Source: Raillietiella orientalis (Eukaryota). From it: a stretch of 64,000 nt of DNA. Below are positions 600-44,100 of this stretch, in pieces. Under the pieces are notes generated by a model. It was not told the DNA's origin and did no database searches. It worked only from the letters and a program-made list of their open reading frames with translations. The position numbers and the translations under genes were made by a program. Numbering within the stretch: the stretch's first letter is position 1; each line of letters begins with the position of its first letter. The stretch is from assembly GCA_036172245.1 (NCBI GenBank), contig JAYWIR010000008.1, positions 4,030,001-4,094,000 on the forward strand, in the 5' to 3' direction.

Positions 600-1100
600 A
601 GCGAAGGAGCTGCGTTGCACAAGCGATCCTGGCTTGCAGGACCCTCAGGATGAGGAGGTCTGGGGGTCAAGGACCGCCGACTAGCAGGTCGCTGCAGAGA
701 AAGTCCTTCCGTAACGTAGCCGTTGCCATGGAGGCGAAAACTCCTTGCGTGGTGAGCGCAGAGCGCCTGGGGCTGCGAGAAACGGAGGAGGGGCAGCAGC
801 CATGGCTGCAGCTACTCCACAGGGGGAACGCGAAAACTGAAAATGTTCGAGAGCCTGCCTTGTTGGGGGGGGGGGGGGGGGGGAAGGGGCGTTCTTCGCC
901 AGGAGCTGTTTGTGAGGACTGGCTCCAGGAAAGTCTAGCGGGCAGATCCGAGAACGCGAGACTCGAAAGAGCTGTCCTCATCCCACCCACCCACCTCCGA
1001 AGTGAACCCCATGGGATGTCCAACTGTTCGACCCTTCGGGACCGACGTCGGAGGAACTGAACATCCCTGACGGGGGGAGCCACTCGTTTCGCCCGCCCAT
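600..1100 (-). pseudogene. Possible family X paralog
   Basis: ATLRKDFLCSDLLVGG (~670-725), with nucleotide resemblance to copy D 19897-19953. Confidence 0.35.
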
Positions 1101-4100
1101 CCATCACCGCGGGGACGCACTCGGCGCTGGGCGAAGAGGAGGATCCGCTGCCGACGCAGAGAGGAGGGCCGAGTTCGATCCGGGCAGCTGTCTATCGCCT
1201 ACCGCCTGCTGCTGCTGGCTACGGCCCCGCCGCTCGGAGCATCCTCTCTTTGGCGGCGTTCCTCCAATCAGGTCGAGACGCTGCTGCTGCTGAGACGGCT
1301 GAGACGGTAGACCAAGCGCTGCCTTCCCTCCCCCATCCGCCTTCTTCCGGCCAAACCAGAGGGCCTCCCACTCGGAAACTCCTCGTTGGCAGCACCTTGT
1401 AGCCCACGAGGCGCGCGTCCTCGCCACGTTCTGTTGTAGCGGCGTGAGGCGTCCCGAGGACAGGAAGGAGAAAGTCCTGGGAAGCGTTCCCTCTGCGGAT
1501 GGGAATGGCGGCTTCAAAGGATCAGTTCCTCCCTCCCTCCTAGCGGAAAGAGGAGGAATCAGGCTTCGCAGATCTTGTCGGGAATAATCTGATCTCCGGA
1601 CTGACGTCATCTGAATGGAAGAAAAATCCATGATGGCGCGGAGGGCACCTTGACCTTGCTCTTTCTCCTCCTCGATCAGGACGACGACATGACCATGGTC
1701 ACAGACACCGTCACATTTTCGTCGGCGTGGTCGCCGGCATCTTCGCCGTCACTGTGATCGCTGGTGAGCGTCGCCCTGATCACGAGACCACCACCATCGT
1801 CGTCAGCGTTGTCCACGACCCACGTCATCATGAGGATAAGCAGTATCCCTGTCGTCATCTTCACTGCCGCAGCATCCCCTCCCCCCTCGTCCTTACCCTC
1901 TACTCCGTGGTCGTCCTCACCACGAGCGTCTCCACCTCCTCTTCCTCCCGTTTTCCTCCTCCTCCTCCTCCTCCACGAGGGACCCCCGCCGACGGGCGCC
2001 CGGAGGTCTCCTCACGACGGCCGGCAGCTGTGAGGGCCCGGCGGCGAGGGAAAGTTAACCCACGAAGCAGCAGCCCTCGACCCCGATGGTCGGACCCGTG
2101 CCGAGGGCGAGCGCGCGGCAACTCCCGCAGCCGCCTCCGGCGGCGGCGACCGTATGGACCGGTGACCGCTCCGACCCCTCCAGCGAGACCTCCTCGCCTT
2201 GACCCGGACCCCTCTTCCCGGAGCGGGCGAGACCTCCTGGGGGGGGAGTCACGCGGAAGGAGCCAGACAGAAAGAGGGTGGAGCCCCGGCTACCAGTCTG
2301 GAGGACCGGGAAAGCAGCCTCCGCTCCTCTTCCTCTCCCTGAGGGCGCCCTCAGGGGGAGGCGCTGCCTCGTCACGCGGAGGGGCAGACGGGGACGCTCC
2401 TGCGGGGATACTCGGGCGAAAAGAGGTGGAGAGCAACCGCATGAGGAGGTCCAGTGCTCGAGGTCAACATCTGGGGACGCGCGTTTGCTTTTTTTCCGGG
2501 GTCACATGAAGGAGGTGAGTCTGCCTGCAGGGCGGTTACGCCTTCAACACCGCAGTGGCCGCGGTTGCCAGCAGCAGGGACGCTGCCCTCCTCTAGGAGC
2601 TGTCCCTCCCGGGCGTCAAAGAAGCACCGAGGCAACCGAGGGTCACTAACCGAAGCTCCCTGGTCTCGTCCGCCCGAAGGGAAAGAAGTCACTCCCGCAA
2701 AGGAGGGGGGGGGGGATCGGCGCTCCCTCCCCCTCCTTTCCTAATTCATTGACGCTTGCGCTCTTCGAGGAGCGAACGGTGGGAAGCGTGCGTGCCATCG
2801 AGGGCAGAGCCACTCGCCCGTTAGTGCGCGCAGGCGCGGGCGATTTCCTTTTTCTTGGAACGCGCGCGATCCTGGAGACACGCGCCATGCCGCCGCCGCC
2901 ATCTTGCGCCTACAGTGATGCGAATGCTCGCACACGCTAGTGCAAGTGCCACTCGTGGAGGGGAGTGGGAGGTCGCCTGCGCTCACATTCCTCCGTTCAT
3001 TCTCATCCACGCAACCCGGACGCGGACAGGTCCCTTCCCTGTCCCACAAGCCCCGGCGGCGTCCCTACTGTCTGCAGATGCCTGGCGACGCTTCGATTCG
3101 CCTCCTCCCACTGACCCCCCCTGATCTCGGCTTCTCGCATTGCACATGCGCATTGTGGAGGTCCGACCAGGGAGCGCAGGCAATTCCCCGAGACAGGATC
3201 GACCACCCAGGTTGCGAAGGGAACACCCCGCTGGAGGGCGCCGAGTCCAGTGCGCAGCAAAGCGCACGTGTCGGACCGACTCGATGGGGGAGGGGGAAAG
3301 AGAAAGGGCGGCGGGAGGTCGCGGATGCTGTCATCATCATTCGTGATGGATGCGCGAAAACCCACGGAGCCAGATCCCTCGCTTTCTGTTGCCGCAAGCG
3401 CTCCGACAGGAGGAGCAGATTGAGGCAGTGGGCGTTGAGGAGAGATGCTTCGAGTGTCGCCCGGGCAACCGAAGGTCCTCCCGCGGAGGCCGCATGCTAA
3501 GGAGGGGAGCCGTGTTGGTCGTCGCCACCTTCTCCGCAGCTTCTTCTGGATCTCCACGTTTTCTGGAGTTTTCAGGAAGGGTGGGAGTGCAGGAGGATGG
3601 GATGCGCCGAGGAACCTGCAGCATTCCTGAAGAGGAAGGGGGAGAGGAGGGCAGGTGACGGCGACGGAGAGGATCATCAGGGAAGGGAGAGAGTCAGGAT
3701 TTTAGCAGGAGGAATTTCTCATCCTCCCTCCAGCGTCCCTGCATGATCATGACCGCCGACGGACAAGGCTTCCGCCTCCCGAGGCTCTCAGGAGGAAGGG
3801 ATCGGCCAGATCGCAGCGGGATGCCTCGGAATTCCTCCCCTTCCGAACTCTTTCACTTCGGGCGCGGGACACTGATATCTGACGGAAGAGTGAGCACAGC
3901 TTCCTCCCCTCCGATTACCCCCTCCCCGGCTCTTGGACGCTTTTCCCTCGGGATCGCTCCCGTCCCGCTCCCTTCACCTGCCCCTTGAGCAGTGACCGAT
4001 ACGGCAGGGCCCGGGCAGGACGGTGGAAGAAAAGATGGAGGAAGGGGAAGCTTCCTCAGCATCCTCCAAGAACTGCTGAGGAGGGTCCAGCGTCGTTCTC

Positions 4101-5059
4101 TCGCACCGGGCGGGTTGGGACGGGCGGGGGGGGCGCACCGCGGTCGTGGTCAGCAGTGGGTGAGGGGAGGACGAGTAAGGATCTTTCCTTTGCTGCTCCG
4201 CTCCGCTTTCCAGCCGCCGTTCCTGAACCCTCCTGTAGAAGTAGGGAAGAGGAAGGGGAGGAGAGGATTCGCTCGCGATGGTGGAACGACAGGTATAACC
4301 ATAGAGACGGGGAGAAAGGGGAAACGCGACTCCCGGGGGGAAGGAGGAGGAGGTAGAGGAAGCAAGGGAGAGAGGAAAGACGGAGGGAGAAGGGAGAACC
4401 CTGGAATGGCGGTCCGTTCCAACGCGCCTCCTCCTCCCACCTTCTTGGCCCCCCTTTTTCTCAGTTTCGCAGTTCCCACCCACCCCTTCCTTCCCCTCTC
4501 GTCGCCTAAGAAACGGAAGAGTCTCTAGAATCCGTCTCTTCCCCCTCCTCCTCTCTTGCAGAGAAGGAGGAGGGGAGGGCGAGACGACACGATACCTCTT
4601 TGCGCTTTTCGTCACCCCTTCTCTCCCCCCCCCCCCCTGGTTGCGGTAGCCCTCGCTGCTTTACCCGTTTCTGCCCGCACTCCTGACCACGGATCTCTCA
4701 TCCCCTCCCTTCTTCCTCCTCCTCCTCCACTTCCTTTGGAAGGGAAAGTGCTGGTGGCAGGCCGAGGTCCTCCCTAACCCAAAACCGCGCCGGCGGCTGC
4801 GCCAACTGAGAACTCAAAGCCTTCGCGCGCGGATGAACACCGCGACCCACTGGTAAGAGGGGGAGGGGGGTGGAAGGAGGCGTGCTTCCCCGAGGAGAGA
4901 GGCCGGAGCAGAGACAGCCCCCATTCTTCAGGCACTTCATCACCGACCTGAACAGGAGTCCTCGAGTCCTAATGAGGGCAGAATAGGGGCATGTAGCTGC
5001 GGCTGACCAAGGCGTGGTGTCCCAACGAGGGAAAGAGCCTCACTCCTTCCTTCCCCAGG

Positions 5060-5660
5060 GTGCTCTCATCGGAAGCAGTGCTTAAGATCGCAAGAGTGTC
5101 GTCGCCGAGGGGAGCATCTGGGAGACCCCTAGGACATCAACTCCCCAAACTCCAGATCCCTGTAGCTCTCCTGAGGTACACCTCCTTTCGAGTTCCGCTG
5201 ATCTCTCCGCGGCCTCTTTCCCCTCCCTCCTCCTACTCCGTTGGGGAAGGGAAGGTGGGGGCGGTGCCAGCGGGAGAAGGATACTTGCGGGACGCGCCAC
5301 AGCCCACAAGAGGAGGGGCGGAGCCTCCTTCCCCGCTCCTCCTCGCCCCTTCCTCTCTTTCCCAGCAGCACCGGTCTCCTCCAGAGAAGGTCGCCGTCTC
5401 CTCCAAGCGATGTGACAGGCCGAGGACGGACCCTCAGAAAAGGAGCAGCAACGCCCTTTCTTCCGGAGTTCAGACAGCGGACTGTTCGTGCCAGCGGCAG
5501 GCCGCGGGTGGTTGTCGAAGACGGGTCAGGAAAAAGAGCCGGCTCGTTGGCTTGTCTCCGTTGCGGGGAAGCTGTGCACTGTCATCTTTGCGGTCTCTCG
5601 CGCGCGCTGAGACGCCGTGGCCCTTGATCAGAGGGGAGGCAGGGGATGGCATGTCTCTCT
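5060..5660 (+). pseudogene. Family X paralog (divergent)
   Basis: LLRYTSFRVPL (~5168-5200) resembles LHRYASFVPL of copy F. GEAVH...RAETPWP (~5565-5625, across a frameshift) resembles RDAAH and RTESRWP. Confidence 0.5.
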
Positions 5661-7319: not shown

Positions 7320-8295
7320 TGATTGTTGCGCAAAGTCCTCTCCCTACTGATTGTTGAGAGGGGCCGTTGCCGGTTCTGGTTTCATGCCATTGCACCGACC
7401 TTGCTGCCGCTGCGCCGTCCGTCCAGACGGAGCCTGCTGCCCGGATCCCTTTCGCATGGAAAGGATTCCCTTGGGACAGGAAAGCCCATCCGCATCGCCC
7501 CAATTCCTGCTTCCTCCATGCTGGGTCTCTCAAACGCAGAGGCCGCTTCATAGAGACAGGCCTCGCAATGGTAATGGAATTTTCCCGGATCCACGTTGGC
7601 AGTGAGACCAACCATCGGACTGTGGCGGTGAAGCCGCGCGCACGAGTGAAGGCATCATGGAAACGGGAAGGCCGCGGTTCATACTCGGGAACACAGGAAG
7701 AAGCTACGTGACAAAATTGTGGGTATAAGACAGTGGAGTGGGAGCGATCCAAAAGCTGACCCTACGTAGCAGAGGAGCCACAAAAAGAAAAGGAGAACCT
7801 AAAGGAAAGAAAAGCAGGAGGGAAAACAACAAGGACAGGAAAGAACCCAAAATGGATTTCGATCTTAGGGAAATCCCTTGCAAAGCTCTCCACCACTGGA
7901 CACGGGCGGGAGCATGGACGTTCGGAGTGCGACAGGTGCAGGAAGAAAAAGACCCTCCTGCACCTGCTGTCGAACTGTGCTGCCCTCCGAACTCTTTGGG
8001 ATCGTCTCGCAACGATCCTAGGAATCGCGGCGGGCGGCCCCAGGGACATTTTCAGGTGCCTTTTCGTGCGCAGTGCCGCACTGCTGCTGGCTACGTCGCT
8101 CGCAGTTCCCTGCTGTTTCAGCGGGATCATGGCGGCGTGGAAGGCCAAAGAAGAAACCGAAACGGCAGGGACGCCGCCCATTGGGAGGGGATCTTCCTGA
8201 AGACCGCCTTGTGATGACCTCACCTGGGCGATAGACGAACGGAGCTTGCCGGCATCCTGAACAGGATGCAGAGGACGTCTGGTAGCGTACTGTGA
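7320..8295 (+). pseudogene. Family X paralog A
   Basis: REIPCKALHHW (7867-7899), CAALRTLWDRL (7976-8008), RDIFRCLFVR (~8042-8071), RDAAHWEGIFLKT (8167-8205) and ELAGILNRMQRT (8242-8277), colinear with copy D. Contains frameshifts and in-frame stops. The 5' end is uncertain. Confidence 0.8.
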
Positions 8296-8344
8296 TCTCT
8301 TCCTCGGTCCGCCCCCCCTCCGCGTGTAAAAATTCTCTTCCCCG

Positions 8345-8456
8345 TTTTGGTTGTTTTTGTTTCCCCTTCTCCCACGCTGCCGAAGCGGATCTCGCCACTA
8401 TACGAACCGCTCTTCGGCAGGTTCATCGCACGTGGTAGAACAAAGAGTTCTACCAC
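8345..8456 (+). other. Conserved 3' non-coding module of copy A (pyrimidine tract plus terminal hairpin)
   Basis: Perfect 10-bp stem GTGGTAGAAC-aaaga-GTTCTACCAC (8432-8456). The preceding tract aligns with 20210-20255. Confidence 0.75.
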
Positions 8457-8480
8457 ATTTCTATGTATTTTTGTTATATT

Positions 8481-8491
8481 TATATAATAAA
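8481..8491 (+). promoter_or_regulatory. Overlapping TATA-like box and AATAAA poly(A) signal
   Basis: TATATAATAAA in a short AT island between copy A's 3' hairpin and the next ATG at 8546. Confidence 0.4.
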
Positions 8492-8545
8492 TGCCCCTGC
8501 ATAACCTGGTGCTAGTCATCCTAGCCACACGTTTCTAGTCACACG

Positions 8546-9300: not shown

Positions 9301-10006
9301 GCATCCAGAAGATGGGAAGGGAAGGGAGCGAGAGCTCTGCTCCACGACCCATCCTCCGGGAAGTGCCGTTTCCTTGACTGCAGTTTTCCAAGGGAAATAG
9401 CGGTTCGACCAAGCCTCCGGCTGTCCTTCGGGGACGACGCGGTCACTCCTGAAAGCTCCTTAAGGGAGTAGGGAGTTTGTCTTTCGCCACCGCCAGTCGT
9501 CTCCATGATCCTCATCTCCCCTCCTTCTTAGTCCTTACCTGATTTTTCCCTCTATCTTGTCTAGAGGAGTGCGGATCGAATGAGACGTCCCCCCTTCTCA
9601 TATCAGGGAGGGCGTCCGCGCTTTTCTCCAGGTAGGAGATGCAGCCTTTTTTTTTTGTTTGGCTTCGTAGCACAAAGAAGTGGGGAGGAAAAGGGAAGAG
9701 AAACTAGCAAGCAGTCCCCCAAGAAGAAATGGACTGTCCCGCGGGCTTCGGTGCAACGCCCGAAGATCCGACTGGAGTTCGCCCTCTCTAAAAATAGAGC
9801 CATCCTCCGTTCCGTTCGGATGGCCGGTGGCTCGCGCTGCGCATCGACCTTCCGGTGGCCGCAGCTTTGACCGGCTAGCAGTGACCTGATCCGATAGCGA
9901 GAACTGGCTCCCCTGGATGGCGAGGGGCGTCCATTTGGGGGCTCCAGAAGACGCGGAACGGGGGATCAAGAAGGTGCTAGTCTAAGTTCGGAATGTTCTG
10001 AAATTC

Positions 10007-12599: not shown

Positions 12600-13300
12600 C
12601 GTGGAGTATGGCTGGTCCGAGGAAGCGGCCGTGGGGAGCGGGATCCCCCAGAGGGCTAGGTGATATGAGGGAGGGAGAAGCGTCCTTCCTTTTCGGGAAA
12701 GTAAGGAACAGAGGGGAGAGGGTCCGTCCAACTCACCATGTTTGGGGCGTCCGCAATCTTCTCATCTCCGAATCACGGCCTCCGAGGCGGGTGCTCCGCC
12801 CGGGAGAGTGAGCGGCAAGCGCCACGGGACTTCCTTCCGACAGGACAGACTCGATTCCTGTCTTGGAAGAGAACCGGGGACTTTGGCAGCGAGTCGAGGT
12901 CACCGAAGGCGAACCTTTCGGGCGAGGATAGGGGCGAAGAATCGCTCCACAGTCGGAGGCGGTTTCGAAGGGAGGGTATGGGCTGTACCATTCATGTCCG
13001 GAAACGGGATGCGGTAGAAGGGAGAGGAAGAAACCACCTTACCCCTCTTTTCCTCCCTTGCCTCTCTACCACTTCCTCATCATCACCCCTAGAGACGGGA
13101 AGAATCCCGGAGACCAGGAGGTTCTCTCCAGATCCATGATGGCACCGGGAAATCCGGTGTCACTTGCTGCAAAGGAGTCGGATGCGAGCCGTGGGGACGA
13201 GTCCTCGTTTCAGGTCAGCCCTCGCTCGCTCGTCGGTGCGCCGCCCACCCGCCCGTCATCGGAAGCGTTCTCAAAGGGAAGGATCGGGACGTCCATGCTC
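12600..13300 (-). pseudogene. Family X paralog B
   Basis: On the minus strand: RTDERAR, ENLLVSGILPV, GVRWF (after a frameshift, ~13030-13047) and HLALWGIP (~12640-12665). About 170 bp is colinear at nucleotide level with copy C. Confidence 0.7.
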
Positions 13301-14569: not shown

Positions 14570-15500
14570 CCATGAAGAGGCGGTCGTCCTCTCGCGCACG
14601 TGCGTACGCACTTGCGGGCGGGCGGGCTGCGCACTGACGAGCGAGCGAGGGCTGAACGGAATCGACAACTTGTCCCCACGGCTCACATCCGCCTCTCTTG
14701 CAGAGGGTGGCGCCGGAGTTCCGGGAGCCAACGTGGAGCTGGAGAGAACCTCCTGGTCTCCGAGAGTCCTCTCGTTTCTGGGGAAGAATCGACAAGGCAA
14801 GTGTCGGGAGTGCGGTGGTGTCGACCGCATGCGAGATCGCCCAGATTTCTCGACGGCCTCCGCTCGCCCGCCCTCGCGTAGGGACCTTCTCTTCGTGTGT
14901 GGCGGTGGCCTCCTCGCGTCCGCCGTGCAGCCACGTCGCCACTTTCCAAGGCAACGGTCGGGGAAAGAGGAAGAGGCACGAAGATGGGAGTGTGGGGAGA
15001 TGCAGGGACCTTCCGATGGTTCCTGAGGGAAATGAGAGGGAGGTTGTTCGGTGTTCCCAGGGGCAGCGCAGGACGCCTCGCTCCCTGCCATCCCACTCTC
15101 CGTTTCCTGGAATGCTACTCCTCCCTCCTTACTCCCGAGAGCTGTTCCGACCACGACACAGCCAGGGTTGCTGGGACGTGCAAGGTGCCTCTTGCACATC
15201 CCAGCAACCGGCCCACCGCGGGCGGGCGCTCTTCCTGCGGTCTCCTCCGCCCTCTGCGTTGCAGCAAGAGTGCCTGCAGCGCCAGCCGGCAGAGCTCACT
15301 CACCAGCGCGTCCCCTCTGGAGAATCCAGCAAGCGCCGAAGGTTCCTGGGATTCTTTGGCTCCCGTCCGCAGCTTCCCACACACGAGCGTTTGCCGCCGC
15401 CACCGCCAGTCGGGGAAAGCTTCCGGCGACCAAGAATAAAGCGGAGGCCGCTTTATTATCTTTTGCATAGACGGTTCCTCCTGCAATGCCCTGGAGCGTA
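14570..15500 (+). pseudogene. Family X paralog C
   Basis: GGLRTDERAR, ENLLVS and GVRWC (ORF 14600-14881). The stretch gagatgcagggaccttccgatggttcc resembles copy D's EFQDLQWY segment. It is the inverted partner of copy B. Confidence 0.7.
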
Positions 15501-18899: not shown

Positions 18900-20151
18900 C
18901 GGTCCCTCCAAGAATCGCAACCTGCGACGCCGCATCTCCGTGTGGCGGCTGAGGCGATCACTGCGCTTCCTTTCTTTCTCTCTCCCTCCTCCTTCCTCTT
19001 CCCTGCCTCCACCTTCGGGGCACCTTGCGAGAGGAAGAGGATGGGGCTCGCGCAGCCACGACATCGCCAGCTCTTTGGAACTTGGCTTCGTAGCTTCCAT
19101 CTCCAGAGCCATCCCGAGCACGTGGACGTAGGTAACCTCCGCACCGAGAGCGGGGAGAGGCAGCCTGTCCGTGACCCCGATGCCTCCCCTTCCCTCGGGG
19201 TCGGAAGCGCCGCTCACTGCCCTCAAACGGACCACAGAGTGATCTCAGAACTGCATCGTCATCCGCGTCCATCTGACACCGCGCCTCCGGCCGAACGCCT
19301 CATCTCCGGGATCCTGCCCGCTCGGGCAGACCCGAGCGACGCTCCTCAACAGTCTGTAGGGGCGGCCCCCGAAAGGGGCGTCAACCAGTCCTATGGTACG
19401 CGATGGTACGGCTCCCTTTTTGCAACCGGAGGATACCCCGAAGAGCTCCTTGGTTCCTGGAAGGCATCCCGGAGGGTCGACCTCCAGTTCCAGCAGGTCG
19501 ACGGGGGCATCCGGCTTCCATCAGAGCCCGCACCAGGGAAGTTGAAGTGACCATCTCCGGAAAGAGAAGAAGACTGGGCTAGTGGATGACGGTCCAGCTC
19601 AACGACTCTGCGACCCCGAGTGCTCGACCTCATGGACTTTTGCACTGGGACGAGCTATTATGAATTCCAAGACTTGCAGTGGTACCCCCCGTCGGTGCTC
19701 ATGAACACCCACATCCTCCTTATGAAATGGCAGGAGTCGGCGATGCTGCTGCTGTACTGGGGTCTCCCATGCAACGTCCGCCGGCATCTGTGGACACAGG
19801 AGGAGGTGTCGACCCAAAATTTCCCCACCTCCTAGTGGACTGTGCTGCCCTTCGACCCCTTTGGGCACGCTTTGCCGCTACCCTTGGAACCCCCGGAGGC
19901 AACTTCAGAGACGTCTGAAAGCGTCTCTTCCTGCGCGACGCCCTCACGGCGGCCGCATCCCCAGTAGCACTTTGCTGCCCACGCGGCGGGACCGTGGCTG
20001 CATGGAGCAGCGCCAGGACGAAAAGGACACCATCTATTTTTCTGTCCTCTTCATGAGGACAGAGTCAAGATGGCCCCATCTGGGAGTCGTGAAACAGGAA
20101 CTTGCCGGCATCCTTACAAGGATGCAGAAGACGCCCTCCGGCACACGATGA
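18900..20151 (+). pseudogene. Family X paralog D (most complete copy; unidentified protein with frameshifts and stops)
   Basis: Ordered motifs HVDVGNL (19119-19139), LISGILP (~19299-19319), GTRWY (19395-19409), MLLLYWGLPCNVRRH (19743-19787), CAALRPLWARF (19841-19873), KDTIYFSVLFMRT (20023-20061) and ELAGILTRMQKT (20098-20133), then TGA at 20149-20151. Each motif recurs in other copies. The 5' boundary is approximate. Confidence 0.8.
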
Positions 20152-20194
20152 TCCCTTCCCGAAGACCCTCATTTTTGGACTGTATTTTTTTATG

Positions 20195-20326
20195 TTTTGT
20201 TCTTTTGCTTTTTGTTTGTCTCCCCTTCCCCTGTGCTGCAGAGGCGGATCCCGCTGTTCTGCTTGCCGGTTCCCGGCAAGTTCCTTGTATTCATAAGTAA
20301 CGTGGCGGGATCAAACGTCCTGCCAC
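20195..20326 (+). other. Conserved 3' non-coding module of copy D (two hairpins)
   Basis: CTTGCCGG-ttc-CCGGCAAG (20262-20280) and GTGGCGGGAT-caaac-GTCCTGCCAC (20302-20326). Confidence 0.75.
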
Positions 20327-20387
20327 AGACATGTAGGTTTAGAAAGAATTGCTCCGACGTGACCAGGTGTCAACCAATGCCACCCAA

Positions 20388-20516
20388 ATAGGCCAATCAG
20401 CATCATCCTGTGGGCTAGGGAACTCGAAACCCACGACACGCTCGTCTCTCGCTGTTGATCTTTCCCCGGGCGGGATTCGAACCCGCGCCGCTTGGCGCCA
20501 TGCGCTTAGGCCACAG
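20388..20516 (-). mobile_element. tRNA-derived short element (SINE-like or pol III-type), copy 1
   Basis: Minus strand: A-box-like TGGCCTAAGCG, T-arm GCGGGTTCGAATCCCGC, and a second GGGTTTCGAGTTCCC motif. Colinear with 58122-58246. Confidence 0.65.
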
Positions 20517-21149
20517 ACAACGCGCACTTTGTGGGCGGGTGCGGCCCCGTCCTCCCTCAAGTGACAGCACATTCACGATGCTCTTCTGACTGCATCTCAG
20601 GACCCTCCCCCTCGACATGGTGCCTTCAGAGATTCGCTCCAGCGGGAACCGAGGAGACCTGGGACGCGCTGAGCCTGCGTGCGGTTCCCGCGAGAGAGAA
20701 AACCCGGGATTCCGAAGCTGCTCCAGGAAGGCGCTCCCTTGTTGAGCCAGGCTTTCCGACAGCAGCGACCCAGGCAATAAGAGCTCTCCCTCCATGCGGA
20801 GGGAGAACAGGGTCGCTCCTGCTTTTACCTCAAAACAGCTACGTCCACCAGACGGGACAGGCAGCGCCCCGCCGTGCGGAGGATCCCGCGACCTTGGAGC
20901 CGGTCGCGAAGTACCGGGAGCCGGCGGCACTACTCCCATGGACGTCTCGGGAACATGGGAAGTGGATGCATTCCCTTGGTCAGCAAGGATGATGCATCCG
21001 TCTCTGCACACCTTACGTGCTCCCCATAGGATTTCTCACGCGCTCGGGAACCCCACATCGCGGAGAAGCTCCCGGGTGGGCACACCCACCGTCCCCTCAT
21101 CCATTCGGACAGGAGGTCTAGCCTGGAGGAGATCGTGGTTCACTACCAC

Positions 21150-31500: not shown

Positions 31501-31657
31501 GTGAAAGAGAGCTAGAAGGAGGGCAAAATTCGAAGGGGCTCTCCTCTCTGTGACACCGCCGAGAGGAGGACCGAGCAGGTGCGGGACTCAGGCCTGCAGC
31601 GGCCTCCGCGGCGGAGGGACGATGTTCGTCGAAACGAAAAGCAAGAAGCTCACGGCA

Positions 31658-31785
31658 GTGGTAGGGCTGCACCTCCTGCCGCATTCCCATGCTCAAGGGA
31701 AGGTGCCAGGATGCCGGCACGCTGGCGACCGATGTCCACCTGGGGAACAGAGGGAAGGTGAACTGGAAAAAATAAAATCAAATAG
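31658..31785 (-). other. Conserved 3' non-coding module of copy H
   Basis: Minus-strand T tract, GTGCCGG-catc-CTGGCAC (31703-31720), and a degenerate second stem (31658-31682) at about the same ~20-nt spacing as in copy D. Confidence 0.6.
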
Positions 31786-32450
31786 GTAAACGGGATGAGT
31801 CAGGAAGGGACCGCTGACTTTTTCGCTGCCTTTTCGCTGCGACCCTCATGAAGATGGTCGTGGAATGCATGGCGTCCCGGTAGGTCAGATCTGTTTGAAT
31901 GGTGCTCCGGGGCGCCACTACTCCGCGAAGGCAGCAAAGAGCCGCTGCCGATGAGGCGAGGAGCAGCGAGAGTATCTCCCACGAAGAGGCTCTTGACAGT
32001 GCTCTTGGCATCGCCCACCGGAGGCCGGAGGACCGTAGAGAAACGTTCCCATAGAGACCGGAGTGCAGCACATTTCGCTATCGGACTCGGGAAGGCTTCC
32101 ACCTCATCCAACTGCCGTGGGTTCGCAGTCCCGCTCCCCCATGGTCCGGCGATGCCGGTGAGCGTTGCAAGAGAGACCCCAGTGCAGCGCCAGCAGCAGC
32201 TCCCACTCCGGTGGATCTGTCCGTTGGCGGTTGTGGACCTTCCCTGGGAGGAAGGGAAGAATCACCCAGGATCCCTTCCAGGAGAAGTAGTCCTTCCAGT
32301 GGGGCACCCGAAGGACTGAACTTCCCGCGAGCTTCCGTATCCGTAGGAACCGATTCGATCCTTCCATTCCTTCTTGGTCTTCAGGGTGAGCCGATCCTCC
32401 CCCCCCCCCTCCCCCGTCACCGCCGTCGCCCCTTTCCGAATCGGCGGCTT
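31780..32450 (-). pseudogene. Family X paralog H (C-terminal half)
   Basis: On the minus strand: LLLALHWGLSCNAHRH (~32152-32209), CAALRSLWERF (32040-32072), KSLFVGDTL, GSLLPSR and RDAMHSTTIFMRV (31841-31879). Order and spacing match copies A and D. Confidence 0.8.
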
Positions 32451-35400
32451 GAAGGAACCGCCTGACCAACCTGAGAATCATAAGTCATCAGGATCTTTGA
32501 TAGAGTGTGATTATCACGAAACCGCCTGACCACCCTCACGGGAGATGCGCTTTCCGGCGTTGCGGTCGGCGGCTGCCGCTGGGGGTCCCGCGGGGGTCCC
32601 GTAGGGGTCCTCCGCGTGCTCCGTTGCGCGTGAGCGCCAGAGCTTCCTTTCTCGCGTGACGCTCGGAGGATGGCGCCGCATGCCACGCCAGCCATGCAGC
32701 AGTCGTGAGCGCCAACTTCCAGGCGGTCTCGTTGGAGGCCCCTCGCCACCCTGCTCCAGACAGGAGGCCTCCGCCCGCCACTCTTTTGGCCTTCCTCGCC
32801 AGTGCGGATGGCGTTCCCCGCGGCCACCCAAGTTCCATGCTCGTTCCACGCTTGGAGTCCTCCTCCTCCATTTCCCCTTCCGGCTCGTCTCTCTGCGCCA
32901 TCTCTGCCTCCCAGACCGCGAGCGGCTGCCTTCCTCCCCCTCCCCCTCCCCGTCCCCGTTGCCGTCGCTTCGACTCGCACCGGAAGGGAGCAGAAAGGAA
33001 ACTGCCGGATTCGGTGGCGCCGCCGCCACCCAATCTGGCAAAGTGGGTGGGGGGGAGGACGGCAGAAAAGCCTTCCTCCCTCCTCGCGGGGCACCTGGGG
33101 TTGACCCCTCGCAAGAGGGCCGAGCCTCATTGAATGATTTCCTCCGCCGTCGCCGCCGGCTGCGCGCCCGCACCCTCCTTGGCGCCTCCCCGACCAGTTG
33201 GTGGCGAACCCCCTCGTCCCGAGAGGAGACTCATGTTATAAATAGCGACAATAAGAAGAAGCAGAGGGAGGAAGCGAAGGACGGCGTGAAATCCTTCCCT
33301 CCTCCTTCCAGCCTCCGCTGCCGCCGCTCGCGCGCGGCTCACCCCGGTAGGACGCGCGGCGATGATGATGAACGGCGCTCGTAATCTCCCCGCGTGTTCC
33401 CTTTCTTTCCTCCCTTCCCGAATTCCTCGTTCCGGGAATTTTGAATCCTCTGCTGTCACTCCGAACCCCGCACGCCGCATCTCGCGCGTTTACCGGTCCG
33501 GGACACCACCCGGGAGAAGAGAGAGGGAAGGAGGAAGACGCAGAGGAGGATCAGCGGGAAACGCGTTCTTCCTGCTTTGTTCCTTCCCCCCTTCCCCTCC
33601 CCTCCTTCCTCCCCTGCTTCCTCGTAGCCGAGAATGAAGGGGAGGAGCGAAACGGGAGATCCGTTCGAGAGCGCGCAAAAAGGAAGGAACCGGGAACGGA
33701 AGGATTGGGTTCCGGGGGAACAAAGGACGTCACGGGAGAGACAAGCGGGGAACCGAAACCGATCCCAGGGAATCCGCCCCCTGACGTGCGTCGTCTTCCC
33801 GTCTTCCCGGTTCGGCTGACACAATCACCATCAATCATCCCGCGGGAGCGTGCGCAGGTTCTTGCTCGCCCGGGAAACAGATGCCGCGCTGACCCCGCGG
33901 GAGCGACTGGAAGACGGCGGAGGGAGCGTGCGCGCCCTCCGAGAGGACGAATGGCCTTTCGGTTCCTCACCTCTTCCCATCCTCATGCCCCCTTCTCCTC
34001 CCCCAATCGCCTTTCCTACCACCACGAAGCCTTGCTTGATGAGGCGACAAAGGCGAAAGGGAGCCGACTGGGAAAGGCAAGTACCCCCCTCGCCCTGCCC
34101 TGGAGAGGAATTGGAGAGTCAAGAGGAGGAGGGGAAGGGAGCTTACCATCGGTCCAGGGGAGTCGTCCCATCTTCCGCCACAGCCATCCCAGCATCCCCC
34201 ACGAGGAGGACTCGAGGGGTTGGCTGGAAGGGGTCGGGGCCGACCCACGTCTTGCTTCCCCGATCGGCAGGTGCAGCACACGATTGGTGTCAGCGAGGGA
34301 GGGGGTGACGTCTCCGCTCCCCGACTTTTCCTTCGTCTCAGGACCTCCGTTTGGGTTTCTCCATTTTGAGGTTCGCTTCCCTTCCTCCCCCCCTCCCTCC
34401 CGATCCCTCAGAAGGGAGAGAACCTTCGGAATGAGCGTGGCTCGACTCCTCCCCCGCATCTTCCGTCTGATTTTCTTATTCGCATCTCCATTCTGCCTCG
34501 TCGTGCTTTACCGACGGCGCAGCACGGCGTTCCTCCCGCTTTCCCTTTCTTCCAGAAAAACCCGGGAGCCGGAAAATCCTTCGCTGCTCCGCAGAGCAAG
34601 GGAGCAGGCTTGGTTACGAAACGCGGCACCCCGACCGGCCGCGGTTTCGTCCGCACAACCCGGCGGCCGCCCGCTGGTTTCCCGTCGGACCGCGCGCGCC
34701 CGCGATGCCAGCGAGCGTGGACCAGCAGCGGGCGAGCCCCGCGAGTGCTGGCAACCCCGCGACGTCGGTCCTCCCCTTTCATCCACAGCATCCGTTCCCT
34801 CTCCCCGTCGTTTCTCCGAGGAACGCCACCGTGACTCCTGCACTGTCGCGTCTCCTTCGCCAGAATTCCTTTCTAATCAGCGCCGAGGGAATCCCTGATT
34901 GGAGAAAATTTGGCAGCCGGAAAGTCCGCCGTCAACCTGTTTCTTCAGCAGTTGTCTGCCATAAGCAGGAAAAAAAGAAAGAAAGAAGAAAAAACACATA
35001 GCAACGCCAAGCATCTTCTGGATGTCTCCTCTGAACTTGGCTGTAGCCTCATGTTCTCTGCATCCTTAATGCTCTTTTAATAGCGGACTGGCCGCGAGCC
35101 CTTTTGCGGCCATGATTAATTCTTTCAGGTTCGATACGTACGTTGCTCAATCTTTAACAATATTCCATTCCCTCCCTCCTTTCTCCTTCCTTCCTTCCCT
35201 CCTCCAGCAGAAAGAATCTCGAGGAAAGGATCCTTTTGAACGGCCTGTGAAATCACGAAAGGTTGTCTCGGCCTCTTAATAATGCCTTTATTATCGCAGA
35301 GTGACGTCCTTATTGCTGTTGTTTTACTCACGTCCGCGTTGTTTGGACTACGGCGACACTTTACTACTCGAGGGAGGGAGGGTGCATTGCGGAGATCAAT

Positions 35401-35451
35401 GTATCGCATCACGATCAGGTTGCATTCTCCGCAGATAGGTGAAAGCGGGAA

Positions 35452-35585
35452 CACGGAAACGCACTCGAGTTTCGCGGTTTGGTGGCGGCAATCGTGTCTG
35501 TGTATACACATACACATGTATACATGACATGTGCGTTCTGTATGATTGCCGCCTCCAGGCTACGAAACTCGGGTTCGTTTCCGTG
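35452..35585 (+). repeat. Foldback inverted repeat (44-bp arms, 46-nt spacer)
   Basis: Arms 35452-35495 and 35542-35585 give 36/44 Watson-Crick pairs; 5 of the 8 mismatches are G-U on the + strand. Confidence 0.9.
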
Positions 35586-36380
35586 CTGCTGGGCGCAGCG
35601 GGCCCTTGGGTCGCTCCCTGACAAACAGCGCGGACCACGTCGCTCGAGGAAGCCACGACAGTGGACACTCCGTGTTTTCAGGGTTGACGCTGTGTTGCGT
35701 TTGGCTTCACAATCAAAGGGCTTCTTGTGGACTCGATGCACACACGTGTATTTTATAAACACTTGCATGCGTGTATCTCTCGGAATGCAGTCGGACGCTC
35801 CGCATGAAAGGGCAACGATTGGAAAAGAATGATTGCGAATGTACTTCCAATCAAGTCCAATCAAGAATACCAGGATTGCCATTCTCCTCTGGCGCCCTTT
35901 TGACACTGCGTCTGATGTCTCTCACTAAGCAATTGCCTCGACCGCGTTTTCCAGTCTGCTTGAGCTTGTATTTACAAATTATGTTTTTTTTTTTTTTTTT
36001 TTGCACGAGAGACGATTTCCTGAATTGCCATCCGGGCACATGTCAAGCAATGTGGCAATCCCGCGTTCCCATTCCTATTCTCGGGGGGGATACTAATCGC
36101 CCTCTCTCTATCCGTATAGCTCGGTTAAGGATCCATCTAACTTATGATTATTGTTGGCACTGTTGACAAGATCCTCGAAGTTCTGGAAACGAAAATAGAT
36201 CGCAAACTGCAAAACAATGGAAGAGGACCTTTCATTCATAATAGAAAAACGCCAGCCTCTGTTGGCTCATTTTTTTGACGGCTGCATTACTCGGTAATTT
36301 ATTCTTTCCTTTTTTTTTTTTTTTTTTTTTTTTTATTTCGTTCCACTTTTTTTTTTGCCTTTATCCTTGAATCATTACGC

Positions 36381-36675
36381 CTTCTCCTCGACAACAATGT
36401 GCTCTACTTTCAACCCAGAACACACCGAGTTTTCTCGTGGGCAACAATGGGATTCGTTGTCACCTGTGAACTGGTGGGCTGCTCCACGGCAATAATACAA
36501 TGCTTTCTGTTTTCTTATAAAAAAAAAATAAAAGCTCTCGCAGCTTGCGCCTCGGCAACAATGTAATTCTTTCGACCCTAAGATGCCGATTTTCTCTCGC
36601 AGGCAACAATGCGCCGTGCTTTCAACCCCAAGCTAATGAAGTGCTCCTCGGTAACAATAGAATCCGTTTGTTCTT
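36381..36675. repeat. Degenerate ~50-bp tandem array, 6 units, organised as a ~165-bp trimer repeated twice
   Basis: Core (C)TCGGCAACAAT(G/A) at ~36387, 36437, 36485, 36551, 36599 and 36647. Units 1/4, 2/5 and 3/6 are the most alike. Confidence 0.8.
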
Positions 36676-36893
36676 TGTTTTTTTTTCTTGCTTTTTTTTT
36701 TTCCCGAGTGTTGCAGCTTGTTGCTTGGCAGCAATGTAAATCTATTTTAGGCTTGACTTTGCGTCGTTGTCACGTGAAGGGTTTTCCTGCGGACTCGAAG
36801 GTTTACGCATAGGACACCCCCAGATGGCGATTCGTTAAGAATGGCAGTCACCAGCATCCGGAGTGAAACCCGCGTGAAAAGGGAAGCCCACTC

Positions 36894-37450
36894 TTGTCGC
36901 GAAAAGCAAAGGCAATTGCCGCGGCCCGGAACAGCAGAAAGAGAACTGGTGAACAGGGAGACGATTACGTGCTGCGAGGATCGCGGTACATCGACCTGGG
37001 CCTCCTACGGAATTGCCGCCGCCGCCGCGGCATGGATGCGAAAGTTCCCGTGAATCGGGAGAGCGGAGGAACGGCAGGAAGAAGGCCTCCCGCCGGCGAC
37101 CGTCCCTCCGGCGAAAGCGAAATGCAAAAAAACACTCTTCCCGCTTTTCTCCGGAGGAGCCACAGGGCTCTCTCCGACGAAAGCGCTGCGTCCTCTCGAA
37201 GGAGCAGCGGCCGCCACATCTGGGCTGCCGCTGCAGACGCCTCGCGACTGCGCGTACGCGAGGCTGCTGCAAGCGCGGGGAGATGCGGGCGAAGGCGGCG
37301 GGTGCGGCGGGCGGCTCCGCGGCTTGCAGAGGCCGAGAAGAAAACGAGGAGGCGTTGCTCGAAGCGGAAGAGAAAGAAAGCATCTCGCAGGGAGGACGCG
37401 GAATGTCAACGAGGATGTCAGGAGGCACACGTGGACCGCGTACCTCGTTG
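36894..37450 (+). mobile_element. Probable decayed Mutator-like (MULE) transposase N-terminal fragment
   Basis: Across frames, LRGSRYIDLGLLRNC, EERQEEGL...KC, GLPLQTPRDCAYARL and EDAECQRG follow the order I recall for metazoan Mutator-like transposases (GxRxxDL..C; ExRxGL..C; LPxP...Y; DGxWQxRG). Frameshifted; matched from memory only. Confidence 0.4.
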
Positions 37451-39922
37451 CGGTGCTCTCTCTCTCTCTTTTACTCCTTCCCTCCTCTTCTCCTCCTCCT
37501 CCTGCGTTTCCTCCTTTCCATTCTCTCTTTCCCTCTCTCCTCTTCGCTGGCCCCTCTCTCGTCCAAGGGAGCGCCAGACGCGAAGGCGATCGTCACGTGA
37601 TCCCAGCAGTCGCTTGCGGTGGAGGCTGCGTCGTCCGCCGGCTTAACGTCTCGCGTCGTCGAATCGTTTTAATTGGCGAAGTCGGAAACCCTGATGACTC
37701 GCGCATTCCCGATAAGGCCGGTGGGGGCTGGGGTTGGGAAGGGGAGGGGAGGAAGGAAGCCCTGCTTAACCCGGTGGGGAGGACTTCCTCCCTACCGGGA
37801 GAGACTTCTGGCTTCTTTTCTCTCTACCGAAGGCTTGGCAGTTTGCGCGCGAGCACGAGTTCCACCCACGGTTGAAGAAGCTCTCCGTATAGCTGGCGAA
37901 GAGTCAGGAGCGGGCCTCAAGAAGAGGCGGGAGGGGAAAGAGAAGGGTTGGGAGGTCTTAAGGTCCGCGCACCTGCGCGCGTTCCATCACCTTGTATGTC
38001 CTTAGGAGGGTCCTCCCAGGACGTCGGCGGACTTGCGCTTGGGACTCCAGACCTTCTCCTGCAGAGAAGTTCTCCGTTCCCGAATCCTTTTTGTTTTCCT
38101 TTTTTGAGAATAATGAGGGTTCCCGAGAGGCCATCGAAGTCTCGGACGGTCCTTGGCTCAATCCTCGGTGGGAAAAGGGGGAGGGGAGGAACGACCTGAA
38201 CTACGCGCACGCGCCTCCAGCCTGGAGCGGCCAGTAGTGCGGAGGAGGGAATGCTGAGCGCTCCGTCCGTTCCTAAGCGACGATCCGCAGGGTTGGCTGG
38301 TCGCCTCCTGCACCCGTTGGTATCTGCCGTGCTTCCCTCACGATGAGGAGGCAGGGAAGGGAGGTGTTTCGGGGAGAGGAGGGGCATCTCTCGAGGAGGA
38401 GCCGAGCAGAGCCCTCGCGCCCTCGGGTGACGTCATCCTTGAGCGAGCTGTCGTTTAACTACGGCAGGGCGTCTCCACAGACGGTGCTGCTCTTGGCAGC
38501 TGCTGCTGGCCAAAGGCGAAGGGGGACAGCAGGGGGAGGCGCGGGTACTTCCTTAGTACCCAGTGTTGGGGTACTAGGCTAATGAGGAACTTCCGGGTCA
38601 GAAACCAGGAAGGTTCCTGCGCGCCCCTTCCAAGCTGATTTCGTGGCCCCTGTAGAAGGTGGAGGCGCTCCTGTAATGAAACTGAACTCCCGCACGTCCT
38701 TCATCCCTTTTCGTGTTGTCGACTGCATCAGCACGGCCAGACGCTCTCCCGTGGCTGCTCCGGTAGTCTCGCGGGGAAGCAGGGGCGATCAGGAAGAACA
38801 AGATTGAGGAAGGAGAAAGCGACCCATGTCTTTCCCGGCATGGTGAAGACGAACCACGGGGTTGTGGGCGCCGGAGCTGGTCCGGAATCAGTTGCTGCTG
38901 TAGTGACCCCCGAATGGACGATGGGATGCTGCAGGAGTCGAGCGGGCTCCTGTTGTTCCGCGTCTGATTCCGCGTAATTTCCGGGAGAACGGAGGGGAAG
39001 ACGAAGGGCAAGGAAGGAACGGTGACAACGAATGCACGGCGGATGTGCGACTCCGTTCGTTTCCGAGGCAACGGCTAGGTAGTTGCCGCCCTGGAGAGAT
39101 TATGCCTCCGCGCCTCTCCTCGGAGATGGCCACCACCGCCACCACCTCCTCTTCCACTTCCCACTCGTACTCGCGGGCTCACGAAGAAGTGGAGCAGCCG
39201 GCCGGGGTAGCCAAATCCCACGGCCGCGAGGAGCGCTCCGCCGAGAGGTCCTGGACCTTGAGGGACTTCATCTGCGCGCCCATTCGGAAGCGCCGGCTGC
39301 TGAGGAACTTCCGGTGTTATTTTAAGACACTTCTGCAGCTCTGAAGCTGCGTTGGCCGCGAGCAGGGTAGGCGTGCGTTCCAGAAAGTTCCCCAACGGGA
39401 AATCGATTTCGCCGCCACCGAAGAAAGGGGAACGCAGAGCGGGCGCCGATTTCCCTCTCCCAGCACCCAGAGCGGCTGCGACCCTGCACTTGCGGGGTCA
39501 AAGTCCCTGCCTCCTCCCCCTTCCCTCTTACATCGCCTTGGTTCCCGCCGGGAAAAACCTTCTCCCTCTCACACACACACACACACCACCACCACCGCGC
39601 GAACATACCCCGAACTCTATCCTCGTGCCGCGGCGGCAGCCGCTACCAACGTGGGTGCTGCCTCTGGAGAGGCGGCACCCAGGCCTAGGGCCTGGCTCTT
39701 TTGCGTTCCCCCGGCTCTCTTGGTTGCCAAGGAGAGGACTCGAGCGTGCGTTTCCGTTTCCTGCTAAGAGAGCTGCAGAGAGAAGGGGGGGGACAAACAA
39801 ACAAATAGGAAAGGAAAAGCAAAAAAAAGGAGAGGAGGGGGAAGAACCGAGCCGTTGGCTCCTTCCCGCAGAGGGGGGAGTGAAGCGATTCGGTTGGCCA
39901 GTGCCGTGATCAGCGGTTGCCC

Positions 39923-39944
39923 CGCGCGCGCGCGCGCGCGCGCG
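39923..39944. repeat. (CG)11 dinucleotide tract
   Basis: Directly visible in the sequence. Confidence 0.95.
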
Positions 39945-42774: not shown

Positions 42775-42801
42775 CGCCGCCGCCGCCGCCGCCGCCGCCG
42801 C
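42775..42801. repeat. (GCC)n microsatellite
   Basis: Directly visible, ~9 units. Confidence 0.95.
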
Positions 42802-43899
42802 ATGCTGCCCGCCGTATCCCAGCTGCGGGCCCTCGAAATAGCGCCGTCGTCGTGCGAGAGCAGCGCAACCGATCGTTTACCTAGCGCCGCTCGCTCGCGC
42901 ACGCCACGGGACCGCCTGATCTCACCGCCCTCCTTTCTCGTCGGGCCGAGAGGGACAGGAGCGCGGAAACCTCCTCCTCCTCCTCACTGTTCTCTTCTGT
43001 CGCTCCTTCCTTTCTTCTTCAGGTGGGCCCCATTGTTTCATGGTGGTCACCCTCGAGAGGTCCTGGATGGTCTCGGCAACCAGACGTGAATCCCCTCTCC
43101 GTCCTTCCTCTTCCTCCTCCTCTTCCTTCTTACTCTTCCTCCTCTCACCTCTTTCTGTTGCCCTTCGTCCACCTCATCATCCTCGCCCTGCTTCCTCTCT
43201 CCTTGGCGGATCTCTGAGAGTCGCTGGAAGCGAACCCGCGGAATCCGAAATGCCTGGCATCCCTCCTGGATGAGGATCGACGTTGTCCATCCTTTTTGCC
43301 TCCTTCCGCTCCCGCTTTCTCGCGCTTTCCGTGCGCGTGGGTCCCGGGCTTCCCGGAAACTCATCGCCTCGCGACCAAGGAGCAGACGCAGCTGGTCGCG
43401 CGGACGACCTACCGGCGCAATGGGCTTACGCCGTCAGAGGAGGCTCCGCCGCCACGAGTGACCCCACCTCGAGAAAGGGAAGGAGGAAAGGAGAAGGGGC
43501 CTTCGGGAACGTTTCACCCTGTCTTCCGCCCCTTGGCTTCCTCCCGGCTGCTCACCACCCCGCTGACGGTGAAGACGCCGAGGTCTTCGGTTGCCACCAG
43601 TCGGCAACGGGACGTTTCCCCGAACGCCCCACGGAGTTGTTACCCATCCTCCTTTTTTCCAGGGATCGTCAGGAAGGGAGGGGGCAGCTGCGAGCACTTC
43701 TCCCTCCTTCTTCTCTCTTCTCTCGCTCCTTCTTCCTTCCACCTGCAACTGTAGCCCTTCCTGGAGCAGGAACGTCCTTCCAGTAGAAAGGAGAGGAAGG
43801 ATCACTCCTCAGGACATTGGATCCGGGGACTCCTTCGGTGAGCAAGGGAGTGGGGGTTGCAGGGGCGAGACGCCGCCAGCAGGGTTTCCCTAGCTGGTC

Positions 43900-44100
43900 G
43901 CTCGAGGGGATGCCGGGGGCAACGGGCGCACCGCTTGGAGGCCTTGGATGCAATCCTGCGCTCCTCCTGGGACACCGCCGGCAGCCTCTCCGGAAGTCCA
44001 GCAGGAAGAGTCAGGAGGCCGTCCCGGACCCTCTCACGTGCGACCCTCGGCACGGACGGAGAAAACTCTCGCGTCGAGCTGTTTACCTTCCCGGTGATCG
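43900..44100 (+). pseudogene. Possible family X fragment
   Basis: DAILRSSWDT...GSPAG resembles CAALRxLWxR...GTPGG. Confidence 0.25.

Follow-up and report, generated by a model that had tools for sequence, protein, structure and literature searches.

The window (the whole 64-kb stretch of DNA that was analysed) contains three relics of a single old interspersed repeat of ~0.6 kb. The relics, which we call copies A, D, and H (Table 1), are dispersed and are decaying neutrally. All three copies are dead: they contain stop codons and frameshifts, and they are ~40% diverged from one another. The original prediction for this region was a cryptic multigene family, and that gives way to the ancient remains of an interspersed repeat at three loci, which is an ordinary finding. 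We propose that the copies are relics of the tail of a retroposon, that is, of the C-terminal end of an ORF together with its 3' untranslated region (3'UTR); we give this explanation about an even chance. The retroposon may have been LINE-like.

Table 1. Positions within the window of the three copies and of the features in them.
Feature	Position	Strand	Evidence or remark
Copy A, ~630 bp	7847..8475	+	nhmmer, pairwise significance, alignment
Copy A, coding-like part in the CAALR frame	7847-8200	+	TGA at 8198-8200
Copy A, CCHC knuckle (C-x2-C-x7-H-x4-C) followed by AALRTLW	7925..7999	+	translations
Copy A, 3' untranslated tail	8201-8475	+	
Copy A, stem-loop with a perfect 10-bp stem and a 5-nt loop	8432..8456	+	RNAalifold; ~20 nt before the end of homology
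Copy D, ~610 bp	19731..20343	+	nhmmer, identity, pairwise significance, stop-column alignment
Copy D, in-frame TGA	19916-19918	+	
Copy D, common terminal TGA	20054-20056	+	tail at 20057-20343
Copy D, homologous stem-loop	20302..20326	+	RNAalifold
Copy H, ~575 bp, inverted	31637..32211	-	nhmmer, identity, pairwise significance, stop-column alignment
Copy H, homologous TGA	31848-31846	-	out of the CAALR frame through indels
Copy H, homologous stem-loop	31658..31682	-	RNAalifold

The three copies are homologous beyond composition-matched chance, as had been predicted. When their translations in three frames were compared by blastp, A and D matched at 78.2 bits, D and H at 42.7 bits, and A and H at 35.4 bits, and none of 30 dinucleotide shuffles (also compared in 3 frames) reached any of these scores. 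At the DNA level, A and D are 61.3% identical (470 columns), A and H are 62.5% identical (341 columns), and D and H are 59.8% identical (311 columns). According to nhmmer, the homology extends across ~0.6 kb in each copy (7847-8475, 19731-20341, and 32211-31641), rather than the ~1 kb that had been claimed. The quoted peptides are present in the sequence: CAALR is at 7976(+), 19841(+), and 32072(-), and ELAGIL is at 8242(+) in A and 20098(+) in D.

We did not recover the predicted array of ~10-16 paralogs. Searching the window with a DNA profile of the core (nhmmer) identified A, D, and H only, and the next-best match had E = 0.03. (Copy A had E = 5e-175, but it is itself a training copy.) Protein profiles for two motif blocks scored 134-171 and 42-90 bits on the three copies; outside of them, the highest scores were 3.1 and 2.4 bits, which is less than the maximum from 20 shuffled windows (7.7 and 5.9 bits). 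Six-frame blastp of all against all (E ≤ 0.1, with no shuffle control) gave three families of pairs at 31 bits or above, and the remaining matches were scattered and at most 28.5 bits. Six loci had been described as full copies. A, D, and H are among them and are related, but the loci at 12.6-13.3(-), 14.6-15.5(+), and 26.5-27.5(+) kb show no match to A, D, or H (19.6-26.6 bits; between 2 and 27 of the 30 shuffles did equally well). The DNA profile, the protein profiles, and all-against-all blastp did not detect any of the 11 "partial" copies. In all, the 14 claimed copies other than A, D, and H score within noise.

The sequences around the copies are not related to each other. For the downstream flanks, 75-92 of 100 shuffles scored as high as the real flanks, and 90 of 100 shuffles did so when the upstream flank of A was compared with the upstream flanks of the other two copies. 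We considered whether the upstream flanks of D and H might be homologous, but the similarity was marginal, with 1 of 100 shuffles scoring as high, and was not colinear. We conclude that A, D, and H are dispersed copies and not a segmental duplication, and since their flanks are unrelated, they do not form a tandem cluster of genes. The copies and the sequence around them have an even base composition.

The unit that was copied comprises the last ~100-120 codons of an ORF (in the frame of CAALR), a common TGA stop codon, and a 3' untranslated stretch of ~280 bp that includes a T-rich tract and a terminal stem-loop. The terminal TGA occupies one and the same column when the three copies are aligned, and in A and D it is in frame with CAALR. 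Homology continues past this stop codon into the T-rich tail, which ends with a conserved 10-bp hairpin. The stem is found in all three copies, and two of its 10 pairs have changed on both sides (RNAalifold), which with n = 3 is weak evidence of covariation. We found no tRNA and no Rfam family at the gathering score.

The similarity between the copies is at the DNA level, as matches between them occur in multiple frames and on each of the two strands. Also, identity is ~50-65% along the coding-like part and the part after the stop codon alike (for A and D, 0.65 vs. 0.58), and similarity after the stop codon is significant (z = 12.5 for A and D and z = 7.2 for D and H; 0 of 100 shuffles reached either). 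Of the three motifs that had been quoted as a series of ordered protein motifs, the second and third sit at or after the common stop codon, have no coding signature, and are untranslated DNA.

The block around CAALR is the one part of the unit with a coding signature, which points to translation of this part in the past. In an ungapped block of 115 columns, the mismatch rates at the three codon positions were 0.39, 0.26, and 0.49. By the Nei-Gojobori method, in the CAALR frame (34-35 codons), A and D have pS = 0.56 and pN = 0.25, and D and H have pS = 0.745 and pN = 0.33. There is no coding signal for A and H (pS = 0.38 and pN = 0.33), so the signal is seen in two of three pairs, and it rests on ~35 codons and three pairs that are not independent. 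In the other two frames, pN ≥ pS, except for one frame of A and H in which the difference is within 0.02. We also considered an alternative frame (frame +0 of the window), which is open across the core of D (19726-20148), but it has pN ≥ pS and no match in Pfam or the other databases, so we do not believe that it is the real frame.

The organization of this unit is like that of the 3' tails of LINEs with a CCHC motif or a zf-RVT domain: the C-terminal end of an ORF is followed by a stop codon, a 3'UTR of a few hundred bp, and a terminal stem-loop. As with such tails, the copies are dispersed, are in both orientations, and have unrelated flanks. A CCHC pattern of zinc ligands followed by a conserved tryptophan is a feature of the zf-RVT family, and copy A has a CCHC knuckle and then a tryptophan. 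Knuckles like this one occur at the C-termini of LINE ORF2 proteins. The CCHC pattern is complete in copy A only (one of three copies); D has three of the four ligands only if two frames are stitched together by eye, and H has one of the four. In a feature search of the ESM-Atlas with copy A, zf-RVT (PF13966) clusters ranked first (0.92), and 19 of the 30 hits were in that set. We view the link from copy A to zf-RVT and LINEs as a weak lead: its recognition value was 2272, which is below the tool's mark of 2300, and there were 154 features in common vs. 170 that are typical of true members. When copy H was the query, the same search yielded nothing usable, and a literature search for the exact spacing CX2CX7HX4C found no match. 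As drawn in one figure legend, zf-RVT is a domain of the fungal element Grem-LINE1, beside endonuclease and reverse transcriptase (RT) domains (10.1101/706580).

If the copies are indeed relics of a retroposon tail, then they could come from the 3' end of a LINE-type (non-LTR) element that had a CCHC zinc knuckle at the end of its ORF2, or alternatively from a short non-autonomous element that was built from such a LINE tail. Reverse transcription with priming at the 3' end would have produced the copies, and the hairpin would be the likely recognition site. A structured 3' end (a stem-loop) is a feature used by the reverse transcriptases of stringent-type LINEs. We infer both the class of the element and this role for the hairpin.

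The copies are also unlike LINE tails in some respects. They lack a Pfam-level match to zf-RVT or a sequence relative in the databases that we searched, and no RT or endonuclease was found in the window. RT, endonuclease, and integrase remnants were absent from 103 ORF pieces of at least 45 amino acids from the ~4.5 kb upstream of each copy (RVT and Exo_endo_phos, E ≤ 1), and the window's 300 longest stop-to-stop ORFs had none either. We did not find a poly(A) or microsatellite tail at the ends of the copies (there is an AT-rich stretch after copy A only, at 8477-8494). We found no target-site duplication either, as no direct repeats of at least 7 nt spanned the boundaries of any of the three copies, but at ~40% divergence such marks would be eroded in any case. 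Finally, LINEs are variably truncated at the 5' end, whereas the 5' ends of A, D, and H are within ~30 bp of one another. (Their 3' ends coincide too.) A discrete short element fits these coincident 5' ends better than does random 5' truncation of a LINE.

The common starts and ends suggest a discrete unit of ~0.6 kb. They are also consistent with an old interspersed repeat that belongs to some other class, for example, a solo LTR, part of a DNA transposon, or a discrete short non-autonomous element with no relation to LINEs. The CCHC motif and the zf-RVT lead would then be a coincidence. Like solo LTRs and short interspersed repeats, the copies are discrete, dispersed, and old, and they encode no protein today. 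The lack of RT or endonuclease remnants nearby, the failure of Pfam to see zf-RVT, and the lack of an Atlas hit for copy H fit this explanation as well. However, the copies have a local coding signature and a stop codon at a common column, which differs from those repeats. The codon-position pattern of the CAALR block, with pN < pS in one frame only, and the common stop codon together indicate past translation of part of the unit, and this would be unusual for an LTR or a MITE. Also, neither TG..CA termini nor terminal inverted repeats were seen at the boundaries of the copies, and target-site duplications were not seen either. Overall, we think that a repeat of another class is somewhat unlikely.

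The copies might instead be decayed members, or last exons, of a clustered host gene family. The spacing is regular, as the starts of A (7847) and D (19731) and the left end of H (31637) are ~11.9 kb apart; there are AG dinucleotides near each 5' boundary, as in a splice acceptor; one block has a coding signature; and no domain of a transposable element was found. But if these were paralogs, then their flanks, which would include upstream exons and promoters, should be at least as similar as their 3'UTRs, so the unrelated flanks on both sides count against a host cluster, and there is no other paralogous segment in the window. H is inverted, the reading frames are broken (D has a stop codon, and the frame shifts in H), and the tract upstream of A is purine-rich instead of polypyrimidine. 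The untranslated tail is about as conserved as the coding block, as expected from neutral decay, and the searches of protein databases found no similar predicted protein. Given also that the coding signal spans just ~35 codons in two of three pairs, we consider the lineage-specific host cluster, which the original prediction had listed among its options, to be unlikely.

The original prediction also recognized no domain in the family, and this held up: we found no known domain and no database relative. With pieces of the copies as queries, hmmscan against Pfam (E ≤ 10) found no families, including zf-RVT (PF13966), and further scans of these pieces were likewise empty. A profile of the three aligned rows had no hits among 1.84 billion protein representatives. 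Word-indexed protein searches found nothing for copy A, whether against longer proteins or against proteins of similar length (E ≤ 10), or for the alternative-frame ORF of D. The only profile match in the PDB, to a subunit of methylmalonyl-CoA mutase, is due to chance (E = 0.029 across 27 residues). No match was found in a DNA pattern scan of metagenomes. A search for related metagenomic loci returned a single locus, whose contig has an integrase-like ORF (as judged by eye), but it shares only the word CAALRTLW, so we attribute it to chance as well. A structure prediction by AlphaFold2 from the three-row alignment was unusable (mean pLDDT of 49.2 and pTM of 0.27). The original prediction also saw no motif of a transposable element. 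The CCHC knuckle of copy A and its zf-RVT neighbors in the Atlas, which are a lead and not proof, go against this.

The lack of cellular homologs is the only point in favor of a viral origin, in which the copies would be what is left of a gene family that belonged to an endogenised large DNA virus or giant element, or of a viral gene that was captured repeatedly. A scan of viral contigs in IMG/VR with the family alignment gave 21 pattern matches, but none of these was confirmed by tblastn. There are no viral hallmark genes around the copies: when the 300 longest ORFs of the window were compared to Pfam, the sole match was to Peptidase_S21 and was below threshold (E = 0.0064, with 16.7 bits vs. 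a cutoff of 27). The even base composition also argues against a viral insertion. We found nothing viral, and we regard this origin as very improbable and close to refuted.

Another scenario is that the copies derive from an undescribed lineage of retroelements or from a small mobile gene, in an under-sampled and GC-rich eukaryote. Its C-terminal domain would be too divergent for Pfam or for our profile search of the 1.84 billion proteins, and the conserved 3' hairpin would be the recognition site of its own reverse transcriptase. We think that this is quite unlikely. In any case, the repeat has no relative in the databases that we searched. It is also a worked example of how similarity between DNA repeats can mimic a series of ordered protein motifs when the sequence is GC-rich and thus commonly has long open frames.

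Two of the loci that had been reported as full copies, at 12.6-13.3 and 14.6-15.5 kb, do match one another at 82.8 bits, a score that none of 30 shuffles reached. They share a different repeat of ~200 bp, which is 82% identical across 169 bp and is unrelated to the repeat in A, D, and H.

The peptides quoted in the original prediction are present in the window. The array of 10-16 decayed paralogs that they were thought to mark, spread over positions 600-44100, is not: self-comparison of the window gives no array, and self-blastn found only 18 short pairs. Six-frame all-versus-all blastp gave three families of pairs at 31 bits or more and nothing else at that level (see table). We compared the six loci that had been claimed as "full" copies (A, B, C, D, G, and H) with each other in three frames, each against 30 dinucleotide-preserving shuffles. 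Copies A, D, and H are similar beyond what their composition accounts for, as predicted (A-D, 78.2 bits; A-H, 35.4 bits; D-H, 42.7 bits; reached by 0 of 30 shuffles for each pair). B (12.6-13.3 kb, -) and C (14.6-15.5 kb, +) match each other at 82.8 bits, again with no shuffle as high. The other eleven pairs, among them every comparison that joins one of A, D, and H with B, C, or G (26.5-27.5 kb), gave 19.6-26.6 bits and were equalled by 2-27 of the 30 shuffles. A DNA profile built from the shared core of A, D, and H matched only those three loci (the next best match had E = 0.03). Protein profiles of the predicted motif blocks scored 134-171 and 42-90 bits on these three copies and at most 3.1 and 2.4 bits elsewhere; 20 shuffled windows yielded higher maxima (7.7 and 5.9 bits). 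From the shuffle tests and the profiles together, the family is real, but it has three members, not 10-16: A, D, and H are truly related, if shorter than claimed, and the remaining copies are noise plus one unrelated small repeat.

Positions in the window of the repeats and other features
Feature	Position	Strand or orientation	Remark
Copy A, homology	7847-8475	+	
Copy D, homology	19731-20343	+	
Copy H, homology	32211-31637	-	
Blastp pair family 1	7.9-8.3 kb, 19.75-20.15 kb, 32.0-32.1 kb	third locus -	copies A, D, H
Blastp pair family 2	13.09-13.29 kb with 14.58-14.78 kb	inverted	
Blastp pair family 3	20.39-20.55 kb with 58.09-58.25 kb		
Shared TGA, copy A	8198-8200		in CAALR frame
Shared TGA, copy D	20054-20056		in CAALR frame
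Shared TGA, copy H	31848		outside CAALR frame
B/C repeat	13083-13296 and 14574-14783	inverted	about 1.3 kb between
Third repeat	20389-20545	-	
Third repeat	58092-58245	+	
Lower-GC islands	34000-38000 and 48000-52000		GC 0.52-0.56
T runs	36310 and 50993		29 nt and 25 nt
(GT)22 array	49705		within second island

The DNA identities of the three pairs are 61.3%, 62.5%, and 59.8%. In the six-frame comparison, these loci match one another on both strands and in multiple frames. Identity between A and D is fairly even along the copies (0.65 in the block that contains the CAALR peptide, 0.61 for the second motif block, and 0.58 over the final ~190 columns). The last part is significant by itself for two pairs: none of 100 shuffles came up to the score of A-D (z = 12.5) or of D-H (z = 7.2). 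For A-H, the last part alone is not significant (z = 0.9, 27 of 100 shuffles as good). The multi-frame matches, the even identity, and the significance of the last part show that the likeness is that of a DNA repeat and goes beyond protein similarity.

Downstream of the copies, the flanks show no relationship (75-92 of 100 shuffles do as well), and neither does the upstream flank of A when compared with the D and H flanks (90 of 100 shuffles as good). We rejected a candidate homology upstream of D and H, which was marginal (1 of 100 shuffles) and not colinear. Since the flanks are unrelated, the copies were inserted separately and do not stem from an old segmental duplication. With just three copies of a DNA-level repeat in unrelated surroundings, the proposed "multigene family" is unsupported. 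Copy H is inverted relative to A and D. The left ends (7847, 19731, and 31637) are spaced by ~11.9 kb (11,884 and 11,906 bp), which is best taken as coincidence because the flanks are unrelated.

Part of the repeat does bear a coding signature. In an ungapped block of 115 columns at CAALR, mismatch rates are 0.39, 0.26, and 0.49 at codon positions 1, 2, and 3. Nei-Gojobori counts over 34-35 codons in the CAALR frame (the reading frame of the first quoted peptide) give pS of 0.56 and pN of 0.25 for A-D, 0.745 and 0.33 for D-H, and 0.38 and 0.33 for A-H. In the two other frames, pN is at least as high as pS, except for one A-H frame where the difference is within 0.02. Over 61 codons of A-D, pS is 0.51 and pN is 0.35. 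All three copies have a TGA at one common alignment column; in H it lies out of frame because of indels. The block with the second and third quoted motifs (RDAAH... and ELAGIL...) has no coding signal (pS = 0.49 versus pN = 0.36) and flat phase counts (14, 17, and 18 out of 42). Of these two, the second overlaps the shared stop in a different frame and the third lies beyond it; what is conserved in these "protein motifs" is DNA and not peptide sequence. Most simply read, the ancestral unit comprised the final ~100-120 codons of an ORF, up to the shared TGA, followed by a 3'UTR of ~280 bp. The tail contains a T-rich tract and, ~20 nt before the end of homology, a 10-bp stem-loop. The stem-loop is found in all three copies and two of its pairs are altered on both sides, which at n = 3 is no more than suggestive. 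We consider a decayed host family an unlikely origin of the copies.

An ORF's C-terminal piece and 3'UTR copied to unrelated sites in both orientations is the signature of retroposition. The translation of copy A contains C-x2-C-x7-H-x4-C, followed by AALRTLW, a CCHC knuckle of the kind that LINE ORF2 proteins carry at their C-terminus. D retains three of the four ligands when two frames are joined by eye, and H retains one. In an ESM-Atlas feature search with copy A, clusters of zf-RVT (PF13966) ranked first (score 0.92) and 19 of the 30 matches belong to the zf-RVT set, with a recognition value (2272) and a number of shared features (154) that both fall short of what the tool sets for a confident assignment. 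The same search with copy H gave nothing, and Pfam did not find zf-RVT in the copies even at E ≤ 10. A figure legend draws zf-RVT beside endonuclease and reverse transcriptase domains in the fungal element Grem-LINE1 (10.1101/706580).

Among 103 ORF pieces within ~4.5 kb upstream of the copies, there were no remnants of reverse transcriptase, endonuclease, or integrase. Neither a target-site duplication nor poly(A) can be seen at the copies; an AT-rich stretch follows copy A. The 5' ends of A, D, and H agree within about 30 bp, a pattern closer to that of a discrete short element than to random 5' truncation. Relics of another class of repeat are among the readings we weighed, and we think that origin possible if rather unlikely. 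We give about an even chance to the copies being relics of a retroposon tail, either LINE-like or from a non-autonomous derivative. A, D, and H are relics of an ancient interspersed repeat, which is an ordinary kind of object.

Searching for homologous proteins with the copies found no relative, nor did a profile search of 1.84 billion protein representatives. Viral contigs from IMG/VR gave no relative either, and a viral origin is very improbable. A DNA pattern search of JGI metagenome contigs had no match; a scan for related loci there returned a single locus (L001), which is a chance word match. The one match in a profile search of the PDB was also dismissed as chance. AlphaFold2 on the three-row alignment was unusable (pLDDT = 49.2). 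The absence of matches in the protein, PDB, viral, and metagenome sets fits both a very decayed tail of a known transposable element and a lineage-specific element, and is not in itself proof of novelty.

The window contains two other repeats. The B/C repeat (~200 bp, 82% identity over 169 bp) accounts for the loci claimed as copies B and C and has no relationship to A, D, and H. It may represent two small elements or the termini of a single 1.7 kb element; there are no Pfam matches between its two copies. The third repeat (77% identity over 116 bp) carries a motif like a tRNA T-arm, GCGGGTTCGAATCCCGC, with another such motif downstream of it. ARAGORN identified no tRNA in this repeat, and its Rfam match is only a 17-nt hairpin. 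A tRNA pseudogene or a SINE derived from a tRNA is a possible identity. One of its copies lies tail to tail with copy D, ~45 bp from that copy's 3' end.

The 64 kb window is free of N, and its GC content is ~0.52-0.70. TA is far below expectation (observed/expected 0.37) and CpG is close to it (0.89); GA/TC and AG/CT exceed expectation, and purine/pyrimidine tracts (GGA, AGG, GAG, and CTTCCT arrays) are over-represented. There are no tRNAs (ARAGORN) and no Rfam families at gathering score in the window. Because of the GC content, long open frames are plentiful (401 stop-to-stop ORFs of at least 100 amino acids; 404 from a separate six-frame split). Among the 300 longest, none has protein-like composition and the sole Pfam match is sub-threshold (Peptidase_S21, E = 0.0064, 16.7 bits, cut-off 27). 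The window looks like gene-poor DNA from a GC-rich eukaryote. The few ORFs with protein-like composition, which lack Pfam matches, are in two islands of lower GC, where the long T runs and a (GT)22 array are also found.
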